From assembly GCF_044324875.1 (NCBI RefSeq), contig NZ_CP172185.1: 64,000 bases of DNA. One strand, written 5' to 3'. How positions within the stretch are numbered: the stretch's first letter is position 1; every line of letters begins with the position of its first letter. Positions 16,756 through 56,163 of this stretch are shown here, piece by piece. The stretch is from Escherichia coli. GTDB lineage: Bacteria; Pseudomonadota; Gammaproteobacteria; Enterobacterales; Enterobacteriaceae. The notes under the pieces were generated by a model. The model was given only the letters and a program-made list of their open reading frames with translations, was not told the origin of the DNA and made no database searches. The position numbers and the translations under genes were made by a program.

Positions 16756-17277
16756 ATGATGAACAAATTAGCACGCTTATTATTAACAGCCAGCTCAATT
16801 GCACCTGTTTGCGCAACTCTATTTTTTATTGGATATGTAAAAGATACGGTTTGGCTGATGCAATATAGCTTATGCGTTGGCATAGCAAGTTGGTTATTAG
16901 CAATAGGCCTGATTCAATATGCTGAGAAACAACTTGAACCTCTGACAAAAAATATTAGTTCAGTTTCTCCCGCTAACAAAGAAGTAACTAATTATTTCTT
17001 AAGCTATTTATTCCCTCTCCTAGGAACAGATTCTATTGCTGAAAATAAAGCATATGCGTTATTCTTTTATTTATCATTGTTATTTTACATCAGCTTTTCC
17101 GAGAACTATAACTTTAACCCAGTATTGTCACTTATCGGTTATAAATTTTACGAAGCTGAAGATGACACCGGCGTAGGTTTTGTATTGATTTCTAAATCAG
17201 TTATTACTGATATTAAAGATATCAAATTTACAGTTATTCAATTAACAGACTACACATTTCTACATGTTAAAGGATAA
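16756..17277 (+). CDS. Multi-pass membrane protein, first gene of AT-rich cargo cassette
   Basis: 173-aa ORF with 3-4 hydrophobic helices, AAGGA ribosome-binding site, opposite strand to flanking late genes. Confidence 0.6.
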   Translation: MMNKLARLLLTASSIAPVCATLFFIGYVKDTVWLMQYSLCVGIASWLLAIGLIQYAEKQLEPLTKNISSVSPANKEVTNYFLSYLFPLLGTDSIAENKAYALFFYLSLLFYISFSENYNFNPVLSLIGYKFYEAEDDTGVGFVLISKSVITDIKDIKFTVIQLTDYTFLHVKG

Positions 17278-17282
17278 TAACC

Positions 17283-18167
17283 ATGGCACTTTTTGCAGTA
17301 ATAGATAATACAATTGCAACGAGAATTGTTAGAGTCGAACTTGATGCAACAGCAAGTACTTCTGTTACGGCCATTTTCCAACAACAGCGTCAATATTTTG
17401 AAAGTCATCATAACAATATGATACCATTCTATGCCGGTTATACACCAAAACATAGTGAGTGTTTTGAAATACAAAACTTTACTGATTCTGCACGCCTGAT
17501 TGACGCAGTCAATAGGCCTACCGCCGTGCCTATCTGGGATCCTAGCCAAATTGATATTGGTTATATTAAAGCATTATTTGTTGGTGTTGACGCGCCAGCA
17601 AACCCCAATATTATTGCACTACAAACTTTCAACAAAAAACAAATCTTAGATACCTCAAAATCATTCTTTGGAAAGCTTTTTGCAAGCAAAACTACCTTTA
17701 GTAAAGCTAATAGCATCGGTTTTAATGTTGATGATAAACTAGTTGCAATAATTATCAATGATACAATACGATTTAAGAGTTTCTTTAATCTAAGAAGCAT
17801 TTTTGACATGTCGTCCTATTTTTCTGCTGCTACTGACCAAGAACTTAATGCATTTAGTCAACTTAGTGTATTTTCTACTCCCCAAGGTTTTGATCTAAAA
17901 TCCGTTGCAGATACAGTGATAAGAAATAAAGTAACACTAATAAATCAGACTGGGATGCTAACACCCCAAAATATGTCAAAGTTTAAATCCGAAGCTGCTA
18001 AAGTTAATTTCCCCTTACAAACCATAATAGTTGGCGGTGTTGAGAAAATTGTCATGCCTTCATCAAAAAAAGAAATAAAAGCCCTTCTTGACTTTCTTGA
18101 GGAAGACATTTGGGTTTCTGGAATAAGTGGAAGACGCTTTAAATCGAATTCAAAGCGCCCAATATAA
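17283..18167 (+). CDS. Hypothetical soluble protein, second gene of cargo cassette
   Basis: 294-aa ORF starting 5 nt after the preceding stop with its own AAAGGA ribosome-binding site; AT-rich. Confidence 0.6.
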   Translation: MALFAVIDNTIATRIVRVELDATASTSVTAIFQQQRQYFESHHNNMIPFYAGYTPKHSECFEIQNFTDSARLIDAVNRPTAVPIWDPSQIDIGYIKALFVGVDAPANPNIIALQTFNKKQILDTSKSFFGKLFASKTTFSKANSIGFNVDDKLVAIIINDTIRFKSFFNLRSIFDMSSYFSAATDQELNAFSQLSVFSTPQGFDLKSVADTVIRNKVTLINQTGMLTPQNMSKFKSEAAKVNFPLQTIIVGGVEKIVMPSSKKEIKALLDFLEEDIWVSGISGRRFKSNSKRPI

Positions 18168-20757: not shown

Positions 20758-21080
20758 ACTTTCAGGCCTCTCTCATGTAACCAGTGGGTTGCACGCAGCC
20801 TGGCGTTTTCCTCACCGGCAAGCAGTGAGCGGATAATCCCGACCGCCTCGCTGTCGTCGTCCTTCACCGCGGTATGAAGAGTGATACCCCGGGCCACGCC
20901 ACGCTTTATCGTGATGACGCCTTTTTTCTCCAGTGCGCGAAGATGTTCCACCGCTGCATTCACTGAACGGTATCCCAGCATGGTTGCCACCTCCTGATTG
21001 GTTGGCGGGAAGCCACGTTCTTTCTGGTAAGAAATCAGCATATCCAGCACCTGCTGCTGGCATTGAGTTAACGTCGTCAT
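20754..21080 (-). CDS. LexA DNA-binding-domain-like protein lacking peptidase domain
   Basis: 108-aa ORF aligning by eye to the LexA N-terminal winged helix (QQQVLDML...GFPPT..E.A..LGYRS.NAA.EHL.AL.KKGVI). Confidence 0.6.
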   Translation of the reverse strand: MTTLTQCQQQVLDMLISYQKERGFPPTNQEVATMLGYRSVNAAVEHLRALEKKGVITIKRGVARGITLHTAVKDDDSEAVGIIRSLLAGEENARLRATHWLHERGLKV

Positions 21081-21729
21081 GCCGCCATCTCCCTGACCAG
21101 TTTTTCCGCCTGCTGGCGAACCTGCGCCAGAAACGCCTCACCACATGCCTCAAGTTCATCGCGCCCGATGTAGCTGATTGCCGGTCCCTTCCAGGTCTTG
21201 TCGAAAACAGCAATAGCACCAGCGAAGAAAGCGCCTGTCGGCACCTGCTTCTCGTCCTTCGGTATAAACCAGGCAGGCAGTTCAAAACCAATACGCCCGC
21301 GAATAAAAGCAATATGATCTGCATCTTCCGGCCACCACACTTCGCTGGTGGCCGCTTTGATCAGGAAAACATAGCGCCCGCCCTTATCACGCATGGCACT
21401 GGCATGTTTCATGATGTAACGCATGCCGGTGATGTATTGCCCCTCATGCTGACTGGCGCGGCTGTATGGGGATTACCAAAGGCAGCACCTTTAAGCTCCG
21501 CAAGACGTTCTGACCAGTCATGCGCCAGCGCGTTATCTTCCGCCGTGTAATACGCGGCACATTTGGCGTTATCACCGTCAGTAAACAGATCCAGAACAAA
21601 CGGGCCAAACAGTGTGTTAATTCCCCAGAAAATGTTGTCCGGCGTGCGCCACTGATCGCCCACTTCCTTCAGTTCATGGGCTGGTTTGTTCCGCAGTTCC
21701 ACCAGTGCCTGACAATATTTATTACTCAT
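21077..21729 (-). pseudogene. Phage DNA N6-adenine methyltransferase (Dam family) split by a 1-nt frameshift
   Basis: ORFs 21409-21762 and 21077-21424 together match the Dam family (WRTPD...NAKC..YYT...FGNP); frame breaks in a G4 run at 21469-21472 exactly at the NPPY motif. Confidence 0.7.
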
Positions 21730-29628: not shown

Positions 29629-29847
29629 ATGTACTTGACACTTCAGGAGTGGAACGCTCGCCAGCGACGCCCAAGAAGCCTTGAAACAGTTCGTCGATGG
29701 GTGCGCGAATGCAGGATATTCCCTCCTCCGGTTAAGGATGGAAGAGAGTATCTGTTCCACGAATCAGCGGTAAAGGTTGACTTAAATCGACCAGTAACAG
29801 GTAGCCTTTTGAAGAGGATCAGAAATGGGAAGAAGGCGAAGTCATGA
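29629..29847 (+). CDS. xis: Excisionase Xis (lambda)
   Basis: 72-aa product MYLTLQEWNARQRRPRSLETVRRW... matches lambda Xis as recalled. Confidence 0.9.
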   Translation: MYLTLQEWNARQRRPRSLETVRRWVRECRIFPPPVKDGREYLFHESAVKVDLNRPVTGSLLKRIRNGKKAKS

Positions 29848-30895
29848 GCGCCGGGATTTACCCCCTAACCTTTATATAAGAAACAATGGATATTACTGCT
29901 ACAGGGACCCAAGGACGGGTAAAGAGTTCGGATTAGGCAGAGACAGGAGGATAGCAATTACTGAAGCAATACAGGCAAACATTGAGTTATTTTCAGGACA
30001 CAAACACAAGCCTCTGACAGCGAGAATCAACAGTGATAATTCTGTTACGTTACATTCATGGCTTGATCGCTACGAAAAAATCCTCGCCAGCAGAGGAATC
30101 AAGCAGAAGACACTTATAAATTACATGAGCAAAATTAAAGCAATAAGGAGGGGGCTACCTGATGTTCCACTTGAAGACATCACCACAAAAGAAATTGCAG
30201 CAATGCTCAATGGATACATAGACGAGGGCAAGGCGGCGTCAGCCAAGTTAATCAGATCAACACTGAGCGATGCATTCCGAGAGGCAATAGCTGAAGGCCA
30301 TATAACAACAAACCCGGTCGCTGCCACTCGCGCAGCAAAATCAGAGGTAAGGAGATCAAGACTTACGGCTGACGAATACCTGAAAATTTATCAAGCAGCA
30401 GAATCATCACCATGTTGGCTTAGACTTGCAATGGAACTGGCTGTTGTTACCGGGCAGCGAGTTGGTGATTTATGCGAAATGAAGTGGTCTGATATCGTAG
30501 ATGGATATCTTTATGTCGAGCAAAGCAAAACAGGCGTAAAAATTGCCATCCCAACAGCATTGCATGTTGATGCTCTCGGAATATCAATGAAGGAAACACT
30601 TGATAAATGCAAAGAGATTCTTGGCGGAGAAACCATAATTGCATCTACTCGTCGCGAACCGCTTTCATCCGGCACAGTATCAAGGTATTTTATGCGCGCA
30701 CGAAAAGCATCAGGTCTTTCCTTCGAAGGGGATCCGCCTACCTTTCACGAGTTGCGCAGTTTGTCTGCAAGACTCTATGAGAAGCAGATAAGCGATAAGT
30801 TTGCTCAACATCTTCTCGGGCATAAGTCGGACACCATGGCATCACAGTATCGTGATGACAGAGGCAGGGAGTGGGACAAAATTGAAATCAAATAA
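29825..30895 (+). CDS. int: Integrase Int (lambda, tyrosine recombinase)
   Basis: 356-aa product MGRRRSHERRDLPPNLYIRNNGYYCYRDPRTGKEF... matches lambda Int as recalled. Confidence 0.95.
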   Translation: MGRRRSHERRDLPPNLYIRNNGYYCYRDPRTGKEFGLGRDRRIAITEAIQANIELFSGHKHKPLTARINSDNSVTLHSWLDRYEKILASRGIKQKTLINYMSKIKAIRRGLPDVPLEDITTKEIAAMLNGYIDEGKAASAKLIRSTLSDAFREAIAEGHITTNPVAATRAAKSEVRRSRLTADEYLKIYQAAESSPCWLRLAMELAVVTGQRVGDLCEMKWSDIVDGYLYVEQSKTGVKIAIPTALHVDALGISMKETLDKCKEILGGETIIASTRREPLSSGTVSRYFMRARKASGLSFEGDPPTFHELRSLSARLYEKQISDKFAQHLLGHKSDTMASQYRDDRGREWDKIEIK

Positions 30896-36335: not shown

Positions 36336-37388
36336 TCAGGGAAGAAAAACTTCACCGGAAAATATTTTTCTGGTTGTCCGAATAACAGATGCGCGTAACG
36401 TCGTGGCATCCTGACCTTCATTACTTAAATGAACGTCGAGCGCACCACTGGGGTGTTCAATATTGATATTGCCGTATCCTACAGAAGGGACGATTTGTCG
36501 GGTGACGGTGCCTTCCAATGCACAACTACTGGAAATGGCAATAGCACCGGTTATCGCCAGCGCGCGATGGCAAGAATGCGGCATAAAATAACGCACATTA
36601 ATTGCTCCGCCTTTCTGCGCTGGAGAAATAAGCACAGGTTTAGGGATAACCATATTACTGACATCGCCTAATCCCATTGCTTTACCCGCTTGTAGACGGA
36701 TAGATTCAATGCGGGCTAATAATGCTTTGTCGGCATCCAGCTCCGCCGGTAATTCATAGCCTGTTTTTCCCAGATATTCAGCAGGAATAATGACAACTGG
36801 CATCGCCATATCGATACAGGTCACCGGGACATCGTCAAAATAATCAATCTGATTATCAGTCGGGAAGATTTTTCCGGTTTTGGTTCCGGCGGCATTCAGG
36901 AAAGTGAGCGCAACCGGTGCGGCAGTACCCGGTACGCCGTCAATTCTGGCGCTACCCTCGTACTCGACAACACCATTTGGCGTTTGCACATCAGCTTCGA
37001 TGAACGTACCCGTATTGACGTTGCGGATACGTACGCGGGTAACTGGCGAAGTCGCTGCAATCAAACCATTTTCAATGGCGAATGCCCCAACCCCAGACAA
37101 CATATTGCCGCAGTTTGGTGTTGTATCGACACGCTGCTCATGGACAATAACCTGAGCAAACAGATAATCGACATCAGCACGCGGATCGTCGGAATGGCTA
37201 ATAATGGCGACTTTACTGGTCAGCGGATTACCGCCGCCAATACCGTCAATTTCCAGATCGTTACCGGAACCCATAATTGCCATCAATATTTTATCGCGCT
37301 GCGTTTGATCTTCGGGTAGATGTTCCGCTAACAGGAACGCGCCCCTCGAGGTTCCCCCTCTCATCATCACGCAGGGTATTTTTTTCAT
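36336..37388 (-). CDS. ybhH: PrpF-family isomerase YbhH
   Basis: 350-aa product; K-12 synteny. Confidence 0.9.
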   Translation of the reverse strand: MKKIPCVMMRGGTSRGAFLLAEHLPEDQTQRDKILMAIMGSGNDLEIDGIGGGNPLTSKVAIISHSDDPRADVDYLFAQVIVHEQRVDTTPNCGNMLSGVGAFAIENGLIAATSPVTRVRIRNVNTGTFIEADVQTPNGVVEYEGSARIDGVPGTAAPVALTFLNAAGTKTGKIFPTDNQIDYFDDVPVTCIDMAMPVVIIPAEYLGKTGYELPAELDADKALLARIESIRLQAGKAMGLGDVSNMVIPKPVLISPAQKGGAINVRYFMPHSCHRALAITGAIAISSSCALEGTVTRQIVPSVGYGNINIEHPSGALDVHLSNEGQDATTLRASVIRTTRKIFSGEVFLP

Positions 37389-37571
37389 AATAATGCCCTC
37401 AATTTAAAAACATAACTTATTGCGATATGGTTACATTAAGGGCAAAGCATCTCTAATGACTTTAGCTCAACGATTAATAACATTTTTTCATTAATTTAAG
37501 TTAGCTAAATGCAGTTAAAATTTTTAACGGCCAGTCACCCAAAATCGACGCTTCCATTTTCCGGAGTAATA

Positions 37572-38525
37572 ATGAAGCATGAATTATCAAGTATGAAGGC
37601 ATTTGTCATACTGGCAGAGTCCAGTTCATTTAACAATGCCGCTAAATTACTCAATATTACGCAACCTGCATTAACGCGAAGAATAAAAAAGATGGAGGAA
37701 GATTTACATATCCAACTATTTGAGCGTACAACTCGCAAGGTTACGTTAACAAAAGCAGGAAAAAGATTGCTCCCGGAGGCGCGGGAATTAATAAAGAAAT
37801 TCGATGAAACGCTTTTTAATATTCGTGATATGAATGCTTATCATCGTGGTATGGTGACATTAGCGTGTATTCCGACCGCAGTATTTTATTTTTTACCGCT
37901 GGCAATCGGTAAATTTAATGAGCTTTATCCCAATATTAAAGTGCGGATTCTGGAACAAGGTACGAATAATTGCATGGAATCGGTGCTGTGTAACGAATCA
38001 GACTTTGGCATAAACATGAACAACGTCACAAATTCATCCATCGATTTTACCCCCCTGGTCAACGAGCCGTTCGTGCTGGCCTGTCGGCGTGACCATCCAT
38101 TGGCCAAAAAGCAGCTTGTAGAATGGCAGGAGTTAGTGGGTTACAAAATGATTGGCGTACGCTCCTCCAGCGGCAACCGACTGTTGATAGAACAACAGCT
38201 GGCCGACAAGCCCTGGAAGCTGGACTGGTTTTACGAAGTGCGTCATCTTTCGACGTCATTAGGACTGGTGGAGGCGGGACTGGGAATTTCGGCGCTTCCT
38301 GGTCTGGCAATGCCCCATGCACCCTATTCTTCGATTATTGGTATCCCGCTGGTGGAACCGGTTATACGTCGAACATTGGGGATTATTCGCCGCAAAGATG
38401 CCGTGCTTTCTCCGGCAGCTGAACGCTTTTTTGCCTTGCTGATTAATTTGTGGACTGACGATAAAGACAATTTGTGGACCAATATCGTCGAACGCCAGAG
38501 ACATGCGTTACAGGAGATAGGTTAA
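37572..38525 (+). CDS. ybhD: LysR-type transcriptional regulator YbhD
   Basis: 317-aa product from Met 37572 with GGAG ribosome-binding site; divergent from ybhH. Confidence 0.85.
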   Translation: MKHELSSMKAFVILAESSSFNNAAKLLNITQPALTRRIKKMEEDLHIQLFERTTRKVTLTKAGKRLLPEARELIKKFDETLFNIRDMNAYHRGMVTLACIPTAVFYFLPLAIGKFNELYPNIKVRILEQGTNNCMESVLCNESDFGINMNNVTNSSIDFTPLVNEPFVLACRRDHPLAKKQLVEWQELVGYKMIGVRSSSGNRLLIEQQLADKPWKLDWFYEVRHLSTSLGLVEAGLGISALPGLAMPHAPYSSIIGIPLVEPVIRRTLGIIRRKDAVLSPAAERFFALLINLWTDDKDNLWTNIVERQRHALQEIG

Positions 38526-53333: not shown

Positions 53334-54275
53334 ATGGCGCACTCACACTCACACACTTCCTCACACCTGCCAGAAGATAATAATGCTCGTCGCTTGTTGT
53401 ATGCTTTCGGCGTGACTGCCGGGTTTATGCTGGTAGAAGTCATTGGTGGTTTTCTTTCCGGTTCTCTGGCATTGCTGGCCGATGCGGGTCATATGTTGAC
53501 CGATACTGCCGCCCTGCTTTTCGCCCTACTCGCAGTGCAATTTTCCCGTCGTCCTCCCACCATTCGCCACACTTTCGGTTGGCTAAGATTGACCACGCTC
53601 GCGGCGTTTGTGAATGCCATCGCCCTGGTGGTGATTACTATTTTGATTGTCTGGGAGGCGATAGAACGCTTCCGCACTCCGCTTCCGGTCGAGGGCGGCA
53701 TGATGATGGCAATTGCCGTGGCTGGGCTGCTGGCAAATATACTTTCTTTCTGGTTACTTCATCACGGCAGCGAAGAGAAAAACCTCAACGTGCGAGCAGC
53801 GGCACTGCATGTGCTCGGGGACCTGCTGGGTTCGGTTGGGGCTATTATTGCCGCGTTGATTATTATCTGGACCGGCTGGACACCTGCTGACCCCATTCTC
53901 TCAATACTGGTGTCGCTTCTGGTTCTGCGTAGCGCGTGGCGACTGTTGAAAGATAGCGTGAATGAATTACTTGAAGGTGCACCGGTATCGCTGGATATCG
54001 CCGAACTGAAGCGTCGTATGTGCCGGGAAATCCCGGAAGTCCGCAATGTGCACCATGTACATGTATGGATGGTAGGCGAGAAGCCGGTGATGACGCTGCA
54101 TGTGCAGGTGATCCCGCCACACGATCACGATGCCTTGTTAGATCAGATCCAACACTACCTGATGGATCACTATCAGATTGAACACGCCACTATTCAGATG
54201 GAATATCAACCTTGTCATGGGCCAGACTGCCACCTGAATGAAGGGGTGTCTGGCCATTCACATCATCACCATTAA
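53334..54275 (+). CDS. zitB: Zinc efflux transporter ZitB (CDF family)
   Basis: 313-aa membrane product with His-rich termini. Confidence 0.95.
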
Positions 54276-54991
54276 TGGGACAGCGCGCGTGAACCTCTTT
54301 CGCGTGCGCTGTTGATCCACATCCGGCTGCCGTTGAGGGCAATAAAGGTCAGGATGATGTACTCCAGAGACATGGCGTAAACGCCCTGAAGTGCAAAAAT
54401 AACGACGCTAATCACGTTAATAATCACCCACAACAGCCAGTTTTCCACATACTTACGCGTCATCAGAATCATTGCCACGATAGATAACACCATCATGCAG
54501 GAATCCCAGAACGGGAAAGCGTCCGGCTGTAGTTCAGGCATCGCAACCTGTAATCCTAATGCTTGCATGATCATGACTGCCACGCGGGTCAAAAATGCAA
54601 ACACCGGATTGATAAATACCGTCATCAGACCAATCGAAACAACGCAAACCGCCAACCAGCTTAGCGCCTTCGGCAATGGCAACCAGCGAATTTTCAACTC
54701 CGCCTCGTTCTGACTGGTTTGTCGCGACCACGCATACCAGCCGTAAATATTCGCGGCAAAGAAAAACACCTGTAATAGCAGGCTGGCATACAGCTGAATC
54801 TGAAAGAAAATAATGCCAAACAATGTGACGTTGATCAGGCCAAAGAAGTAGTTGCTGATCTTCTCCAGACTGGCAAGGCCAATACACAGCAACCCGGCGA
54901 TCGTGCCTACCGCTTCGATCCATGAGAGATCATAACCGCCTGCTCCTATTGGTATATGTACCAGGATATTCTGCACACTAAAAAAATCCAT
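54272..54991 (-). CDS. pnuC: Nicotinamide riboside transporter PnuC
   Basis: 239-aa membrane product. Confidence 0.95.
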
Positions 54992-55028: not shown

Positions 55029-56073
55029 TTATCCACGTAGTGTAGCCGCAAAATCCAGCATACGATTGAGCGGCACCAGCGCCCTCTCTCGCAGCCTTTC
55101 CTCAACATGAACCTCGTGGATTGCTTCCTTCCTGTTCTAATGCCTCTGCGATGGCCTGAAGGCCATTCATGGCCATCCACGGACAATGCGCGCAGCTGCG
55201 GCAGGTTGCGCCCTCACCCGCGGTTGGTGCTTCCAGTAACTCTTTATCTGGTACCGCCTGCTGCATTTTGTAGAAAATACCCCGATCGGTTGCCACGATA
55301 AGTCGCTGATGTGGCAATGTTTTCGCAGCAGCAATCAGTTGACTGGTGGAACCGACCGCATCCGCCATCTCTACAATAGCTTGCGGTGATTCTGGATGCA
55401 CCAGTATGGCAGCATCCGGGTATTCTTCTTGCAAGCGGGTTAACGCCTGAGTCTTAAACTCATCATGCACAATGCAGGCACCCTGCCAGCATAAAATGTC
55501 TGCGCCCGTCTGTTTTTGCACGTAACGCCCCAGATGTTTGTCGGGTGCCCAGATGATTTTTTCACCCAAACTATCCAGATGATCAATAAGTTCGACGGCA
55601 ATGCTTGAAGTTATCACCCAATCTGCCCGCGCTTTTACCGCAGCAGAAGTGTTGGCGTAGACGACGACAGTATGATCGGGATGGGCATCGCAAAATGCGT
55701 TAAATTCTTCAACTGGGCAGCCGAGATCCAGTGAACATTCAGCCTGAAGTGTCGGCATCAGAATTGTTTTTTCCGGACTGAGAATTTTGGCGGTTTCTCC
55801 CATAAATCTCACCCCAGCGACTAACAACGTAGAAGCGGGATGCTTTGCACCGAAGCGCGCCATTTCCAGAGAATCAGAAATACAGCCACCGGTTTCTTCT
55901 GCCAGTTGTTGAATTTCGGGATCGGTATAGTAGTGGGCAACCATCACCGCATTACGTTCTTTTAGCAGACGTTTTATCTTCTCGCGGTAATACACTTTTT
56001 CATCAATGCTTAACGGCGTCGGCTTCGGGGGGAAAGGATAAATCGCCGTGTCTGGATCAAACATCACGCTCAT
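55029..56073 (-). pseudogene. nadA: Quinolinate synthase NadA with 1-nt insertion near 3' end (C-terminal frameshift)
   Basis: ORF 55102-56073 gives 323 aa ending ...[11 protein letters not shown]; deleting one C at about 55118-55119 restores ...[30 protein letters not shown] ending at 55029 (347 aa). Confidence 0.7.
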
Positions 56074-56145
56074 CTTACCATCTCGTTTTACAGGATTAAC
56101 GTTAAAGCCGACCTAAGCGTGATATTCGCTATTATCGGCGTAATT

Positions 56146-56163
56146 TGTTTTATATGCTAAACA
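56146..56163 (-). promoter_or_regulatory. Putative NadR operator in nadA promoter
   Basis: TGTTTTATATGCTAAACA resembles the TGTTTA-N6-TAAACA NAD box. Confidence 0.4.

Follow-up and report, generated by a model that had tools for sequence, protein, structure and literature searches.

A clonal single-base duplication truncates nadA, the gene for quinolinate synthase, in Escherichia coli and probably makes the clone dependent on niacin

Does an Escherichia coli chromosome in which one extra base breaks the reading frame of nadA carry a genuine mutation, and if so, is the clone likely to have lost its own route to NAD? The question is raised by a stretch of 64,000 nucleotides from contig NZ_CP172185.1 (assembly GCF_044324875.1), which we call the window. 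It contains a prophage and the chromosomal DNA from ybhC to cydB, and the source records of its alleles are all named 'Escherichia coli'. In the window nadA occupies its canonical E. coli position, with the Lys/Val tRNA cluster on its upstream side and pnuC following it. The original prediction, made from the letters of the window alone, held that a single-base insertion brings the quinolinate synthase frame to a premature stop. Its coordinates, lengths and sequences are all correct, as judged from the list of open reading frames, the alignment with nadA of E. coli 042, a tblastn search and the removal of one C.

The window gene runs for 323 codons until the stop, compared with 347 in the intact gene. 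Aligned with the 042 gene over 1,044 nt, it differs solely by the extra C, and removal in silico of one C from the pair at 55118-55119 restores a 347-aa NadA with the expected C-terminus. With NadA as the tblastn query, two pieces are found in different frames, residues 1-318 (56073..55120) and residues 319-347 (55118..55032). The repaired product covers the Pfam family PF02445 from end to end (model positions 1-295 of 295, E = 4.9e-107), and NadA chains in the PDB match it at E around 1e-45 to 1e-48. The frame across the NadA domain, including its C-terminal helix, is broken at codon 319, and we therefore file the window gene as a frameshifted allele or pseudogene and not as a functional nadA. 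The features of the locus are collected in Table 1.

Table 1. Coordinates of nadA, its lesion and further features of the window
Feature	Coordinates	Strand	Description and basis
nadA (quinolinate synthase A), whole frameshifted gene	55029..56073	-	99.9% identity to annotated nadA in 26 of the complete genomes listed; Pfam match
Truncated ORF	55102..56073	-	318 native codons and 5 out-of-frame codons (PRGSC), then TGA; 323 aa; ORF list
Lesion, CC versus a single C in relatives	55118..55119	-	c.955dupC, p.His319Profs*6; alignment with E. coli 042 nadA
Stranded 3' remnant	55029..55118	-	native residues 319-347 and stop, out of frame; tblastn 55118..55032, 100% identity; translation
pnuC (nicotinamide riboside transporter)	54272..54991	-	directly downstream of nadA; 239 aa, full length, 99.6% identical to reference
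Window-private SNP	56095	-	T on the nadA strand, 22 nt ahead of the ATG
nadA promoter-like site	56131..56163	-	TTAGCA-18-GATAAT, overlapping an intact NadR-type palindrome, TGTTTAGCATATAAAACA
Seven tRNA genes	56351-57252		gene order same as in 042 and Ec-FL1-1X
Prophage excisionase	29629-29844		
Prophage integrase	29825-30892		

A one-base indel is the commonest type of sequencing error and the extra C is found in no complete RefSeq genome, which would be in keeping with a sequencing or assembly artefact, as the original prediction had itself allowed. This alternative is rejected, because the identical insertion occurs in three independent assemblies and the exact product is encoded on 32 contigs. 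The same 61-mer with CC is present in the independently produced assemblies GCA_002467655.1 (L001), SRR31121839 (L002) and GCA_044081235.1 (L005/L014/L016), and absent in L003, L004 and L015. The three carriers are 99.99% identical to the window, with 1-2 substitutions and zero gaps over 11-21 kb; the insertion is thus neither confined to one assembly nor accompanied by other indels. The site consists of a single duplicated C and not of a long homopolymer. The contigs with the exact 323-aa product come from NCBI and from Logan assemblies of different public runs, the NCBI entry being SRB17304.1, 'quinolinate synthetase A [Escherichia coli]'. Their number, 32, is a lower bound, because GCA_044081235.1 has no product listed at nadA, as expected if the gene was annotated as a pseudogene. 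The remaining host genes are intact: among the other chromosomal CDSs from ybhC to cydX, the 31 that were checked all match reference proteins over their full length, and neither poor sequence quality nor widespread gene decay is apparent from them in the host region. The frameshift is a real mutation, and an artefact is very improbable. Complete E. coli genomes typically list tens to more than 100 pseudogenes, so that one pseudogene per about 32 chromosomal genes is ordinary for the species. The notable point is which gene is hit.

The insertion is absent from all 5,426 complete RefSeq E. coli genomes, whether the whole gene, a 61-mer or a 34-mer is used as the query. The best whole-gene matches in this set align 1,045 nt with 1,044 nt, the 61-mer over the lesion matches in 4,030 genomes and always at 60/61, and the 34-mer centred on the lesion has zero matches. 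Over the host part of the window, the nearest complete RefSeq genomes are no closer than 98.5-99.2%, and the set includes no complete genome from this lineage. The clone itself is recurrent in public isolate sequencing, and one of its members has a 5.75-Mb chromosome. The window alleles of ModF, GalM and GalT are each found on 162-164 contigs, the longest of 5,752,694 bp. As a clone marker we use GalM Q65L (window 49505), present on 162 contigs, a figure that counts this linked marker allele and not nadA, DNA-level inspection having covered four clone members. Q65L is derived in the frameshift carriers, as residue 65 is Q in both L015 and Ec-FL1-1X.

L015 (GCA_014589615.1) shares the GalT allele of the clone. 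Once a recombined patch and two window-private SNPs are set aside, 3 substitutions in about 18 kb and the extra C separate it from the window, and GalM Q65L is among these 3. The patch holds 17 substitutions between the clone and L015, clustered at 37122-38054 (about 1 kb, ybhH/ybhD), with 3 in the next 18 kb, and from this distribution it looks like a small recombination event. The original prediction had proposed that nadA be compared across close relatives, and this comparison bears it out: L015 has an intact 347-aa nadA, while L001, L002 and GCA_044081235.1 share the CC of the window, so that the insertion is common to four sequences of independent sources. Because the near-clonal relative L015 keeps an intact nadA and the coding sequence shows no other change against the 042 allele, the frameshift is one recent event within a single lineage. 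Most of the roughly 160 clone members sampled probably carry it. A literature search with the assembly, run and protein accessions of the clone found no paper.

Further differences were noted within this group of genomes. Residue 417 of ModF (window 45607) is V in the clone, with the allele on 162 contigs, and M in L015. PnuC M151I, which corresponds to window 54539, is private to L015, and the clone has the common PnuC allele. A SNP private to the window at 38372, inside ybhD, has A where L013-L016 have G.

What the truncation removes can be judged from the repaired protein. The Pfam NadA domain spans its residues 31-340, and about 22 of the 295 model positions are lost. Alignment with solved NadA chains of Pyrococcus and Thermotoga extends to residue 340-341, which lies within 1-3 residues of the C-termini of those chains. 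In an AlphaFold model based on 36 homologues (mean pLDDT 93.9), residues 325-346 are predicted to form a single long helix, with a block-mean pLDDT of 98 for residues 321-340 and of 86 for residues 341-347. In the 36 homologues, which are 30-59% identical to the query, segment 319-341 is free of gaps. A331 and M338 are each found in 35 of the 36, and position 337 is R in 27 and K in 5 more. These homologues had been picked for matching to the end and are a biased set, so the count was redone on all 150 best representatives, 53 of which have a complete N-terminus and extend as far as the third cysteine. Alignment extends to residue 335 or beyond in 46 of the 53, and 3 more carry an A..R(M/L)(L/I) motif in their unaligned tail. 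The tails of the last 4 are scrambled, as if these gene calls were frameshifted too. Upstream of the break, the three ligands of the [4Fe-4S] cluster, C113, C200 and C297, are kept (invariant in 36/36 homologues), as are the three core alpha/beta domains predicted by AlphaFold. We searched the literature for NadA C-terminal truncation and for the c.955dupC allele and found none.

From these data the following sequence of events can be proposed. The duplication of one C in codon 319 shifts the frame, adds five wrong residues and a stop, and gives a protein of 323 aa. This protein keeps the three cysteine ligands and is without the last 29 residues, including helix 325-346, and it is most likely misfolded or inactive. 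The clone would then be unable to make quinolinate from aspartate and dihydroxyacetone phosphate, and its NAD would have to come from external precursors, either niacin or nicotinamide (PncB/PncA) or nicotinamide riboside (intact PnuC together with NadR). Given a real lesion, we regard loss of function as likely, because the lost helix is conserved, confidently predicted and contains the near-invariant A331 and M338. Niacin auxotrophy of the clone is likely on the same reasoning, and we consider the complete explanation, a clonal nadA frameshift that leaves an inactive enzyme and a niacin-dependent clone, to be probable.

The original prediction had raised impaired de novo NAD synthesis as a possibility. 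The truncation stands as claimed and takes away the conserved C-terminal helix, and the loss of synthesis itself is likely from sequence and model. It had also proposed dependence on the adjacent pnuC and on salvage. PnuC imports nicotinamide riboside, and niacin and nicotinamide are salvaged via PncB and PncA. Dependence on salvage is probable, but naming pnuC is too narrow, since the niacin and nicotinamide route through PncB/PncA is encoded outside the window. The same applies to the location of nadB, nadC and nadR, which like pncA and pncB all lie outside it.

Two alternatives would leave the clone with a working enzyme. Because the clone was sampled many times (marker allele on 162 contigs), the lesion can do no great harm in the niche of the clone, and this fits a harmless auxotrophy as well as a still-functional NadA. 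The truncated protein could be active enough for prototrophy if the C-terminal helix were helpful but dispensable, and the cysteine ligands and the predicted core domains upstream of the break, together with the success of the clone, would agree with such residual activity. Against it, the helix is found in nearly all homologues, holds two near-invariant residues and lies inside both the Pfam domain and the solved structures, while the few representatives without it have the scrambled tails described above. In addition, Seif et al. count NadA indels of more than 10 aa as deleterious (PMC7084086). We therefore consider residual activity sufficient for prototrophy to be quite unlikely. Full-length NadA could also be produced by +1 translational recoding or by transcriptional slippage at the lesion, for which it can be said that the frame beyond the lesion remains open and encodes the unchanged native C-terminus. 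An open downstream frame is, however, expected anyway after a very recent mutation. The sequence AAU-CCA-CGA offers neither a slippery run nor an option for re-pairing, and the arrangement is limited to one recent clone, with the ordinary frame in the 5,426 genomes and in the closest relative. A programmed ribosomal frameshift was accordingly dropped as a candidate, with no motif at this site and no conservation among relatives, and recoding of any kind is barely credible. An inactive NadA thus remains the reading that we prefer.

Upstream of the gene, the promoter-like site is intact and overlaps a palindrome that we take, from general knowledge of the NadR regulon, to be a putative NadR operator. 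Position 56095 carries G in the three clone assemblies, L015, 042 and Ec-FL1-1X, and the SNP at this position is the sole difference of the window from L001 (18.9 kb) and from L002 (11.2 kb). Either relaxed constraint on a dead gene or chance could account for it. The segment 56074-56300 upstream of nadA is far from 042 and of the Ec-FL1-1X type, and the coding sequence equals that of 042 apart from the insertion, a pattern which suggests a recombination boundary near the start of nadA. Downstream of nadA, the early stop leaves 110 nt untranslated ahead of pnuC, where the intact gene leaves 37 nt, and no terminator-like site was found on the same strand between the two genes. We judge a gap of 110 nt to be too short for much polarity on pnuC. 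The exact PnuC protein of the window is present on at least 1,000 contigs.

The other end of the window, positions 1-30895, is occupied by an SfV-like prophage with a contractile tail, integrated beside ybhC. It is about 97% identical to Escherichia phage vB_EcoM-720R4 over 80% of the query and 95.6% identical to Shigella phage SfV over 56%. Its late-gene antiterminator (Pfam Phage_antitermQ) and its lysis genes flank a Kiwa anti-phage defence pair (16756-18167, plus strand), with KwaA of 173 aa (PADLOC E = 1.9e-83) and KwaB of 294 aa (E = 2.3e-150). The gene for a Dam-like DNA methyltransferase of the prophage (21077-21729, minus strand) falls into two ORFs, of 106 and 111 aa, that overlap in different frames and match positions 41-122 and 131-243 of the phrog_111 profile. 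It is the second interrupted gene in the window, and the same split is present in the independent assembly L006.

Was the loss of nadA selected, and does it place the clone beside Shigella? The original prediction had pointed to inactivation of nadA and nadB as a known pathoadaptive change in Shigella and enteroinvasive E. coli (EIEC). This background is accurate: nad inactivation is pathoadaptive in Shigella and is not general in EIEC, where nadB is preferred over nadA as the target (PMC5723341). For inactivation of nadA or nadB in Shigella and in some EIEC, PMC5723341 cites Prunier et al. (2007) and Di Martino et al. (2013). Its extension to the present clone is not supported. The DNA of the window gives no Shigella or EIEC mark, as judged from the lack of IS elements and of other decayed host genes in its 33 kb of host DNA, which is colinear with reference genomes, and from the naming of the source records. 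IS expansion and additional pseudogenes are thus missing within the window, which is a small sample of the genome, and the window DNA does not give the pathotype.

Selection would in any case refine the proposed inactivation and not compete with it. The loss may have been favoured over drift as loss of an antivirulence gene or as a saving under constant niacin, as the Shigella precedent would suggest. Niacin auxotrophs also outcompeted prototrophs in co-culture according to Bouvet et al. (2017), as cited in PMC8207962, and samples of the mutant clone far outnumber those of its intact relative. Of 24 contigs with the shared GalT allele, 1 lies in a separate place with intact nadA and the other 23 go with a representative that has the extra C, 22 of these being collapsed under it and known via that representative alone. 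This pattern is compatible with selection and equally with drift and biased sampling. On the other side, nadA appears to be under purifying selection across E. coli (PMC10401003), the usual target in EIEC is nadB, nothing in the window marks the strain as invasive, and a single event carries no signal of convergence, in a sample biased to surveillance isolates. We therefore think it rather unlikely, if conceivable, that loss of nadA was positively selected and aided the expansion of this non-Shigella clone.

If the clone is auxotrophic, it would not grow on unsupplemented minimal media, and metabolic models built from gene presence alone would miss the defect, a point that Seif et al. make for Shigella (PMC7084086). 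The one-base change could then be used as a marker of the clone, also in a growth-based form. Auxotrophy would add a further independent loss of de novo NAD synthesis in E. coli to those that recur in host-adapted lineages. Should the loss have been selected, the clone would add another independent example to the convergent niacin auxotrophies of the species, via nadA rather than nadB.

Compared with the nadA and nadB losses of Shigella and EIEC, the present case shares the kind of lesion, which is small, natural and located in one of the two genes that open the de novo NAD pathway, as well as clonal inheritance and a predicted niacin requirement. Those organisms are invasive carriers of pINV that are rich in IS elements and have lost other genes in parallel, and inhibition of their virulence by quinolinate has been demonstrated, whereas the host DNA of the window has neither an IS element nor another host pseudogene. 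E. coli NC101 is similar as a non-Shigella E. coli with a point lesion in nadA as its only reported defect and with gut persistence. Its nadA T263G missense mutation leads to niacin auxotrophy, with revertants (PMC8207962), and corresponds to V88G in our translation. NC101 is a single strain with a missense change and a proven phenotype, while the clone described here has a frameshift that removes 29 residues and a predicted effect. The NC101 revertant 'T1014G' was considered as evidence on the helix and dropped, as position 1014 is already G in the window allele.

Niacin auxotrophy that marks a whole lineage of a non-invasive E. coli clone is also exemplified by nadB A28V, presumably the allele of UTI89/ST95. 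The allele was described in E. coli by Seif et al. (2020, PMC7084086), and niacin auxotrophy in uropathogenic and B2 strains is attributed to Li (2012) and Bouvet (2017) where these are cited in PMC8207962. It differs in the gene, nadB, and in the phylogroup, B2; the nadA of the window is the 042 allele with an insertion. Natural substitutions and a C-terminal truncation of NadA itself are known from the validated alleles W299X, P219L, C128Y and A111V, the last in S. enterica Dublin, all of which cause a niacin requirement (Seif et al. 2020, PMC7084086). The c.955dupC allele is not among the nadA alleles listed there. W299X ends the protein two residues past the third cysteine ligand. The stop of c.955dupC lies 19 residues further on, so that the terminal strand and helix only are lost, and the effect is predicted where that of W299X is validated. 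In this comparison c.955dupC adds a new allele to a familiar type of natural auxotrophy and involves no new mechanism.
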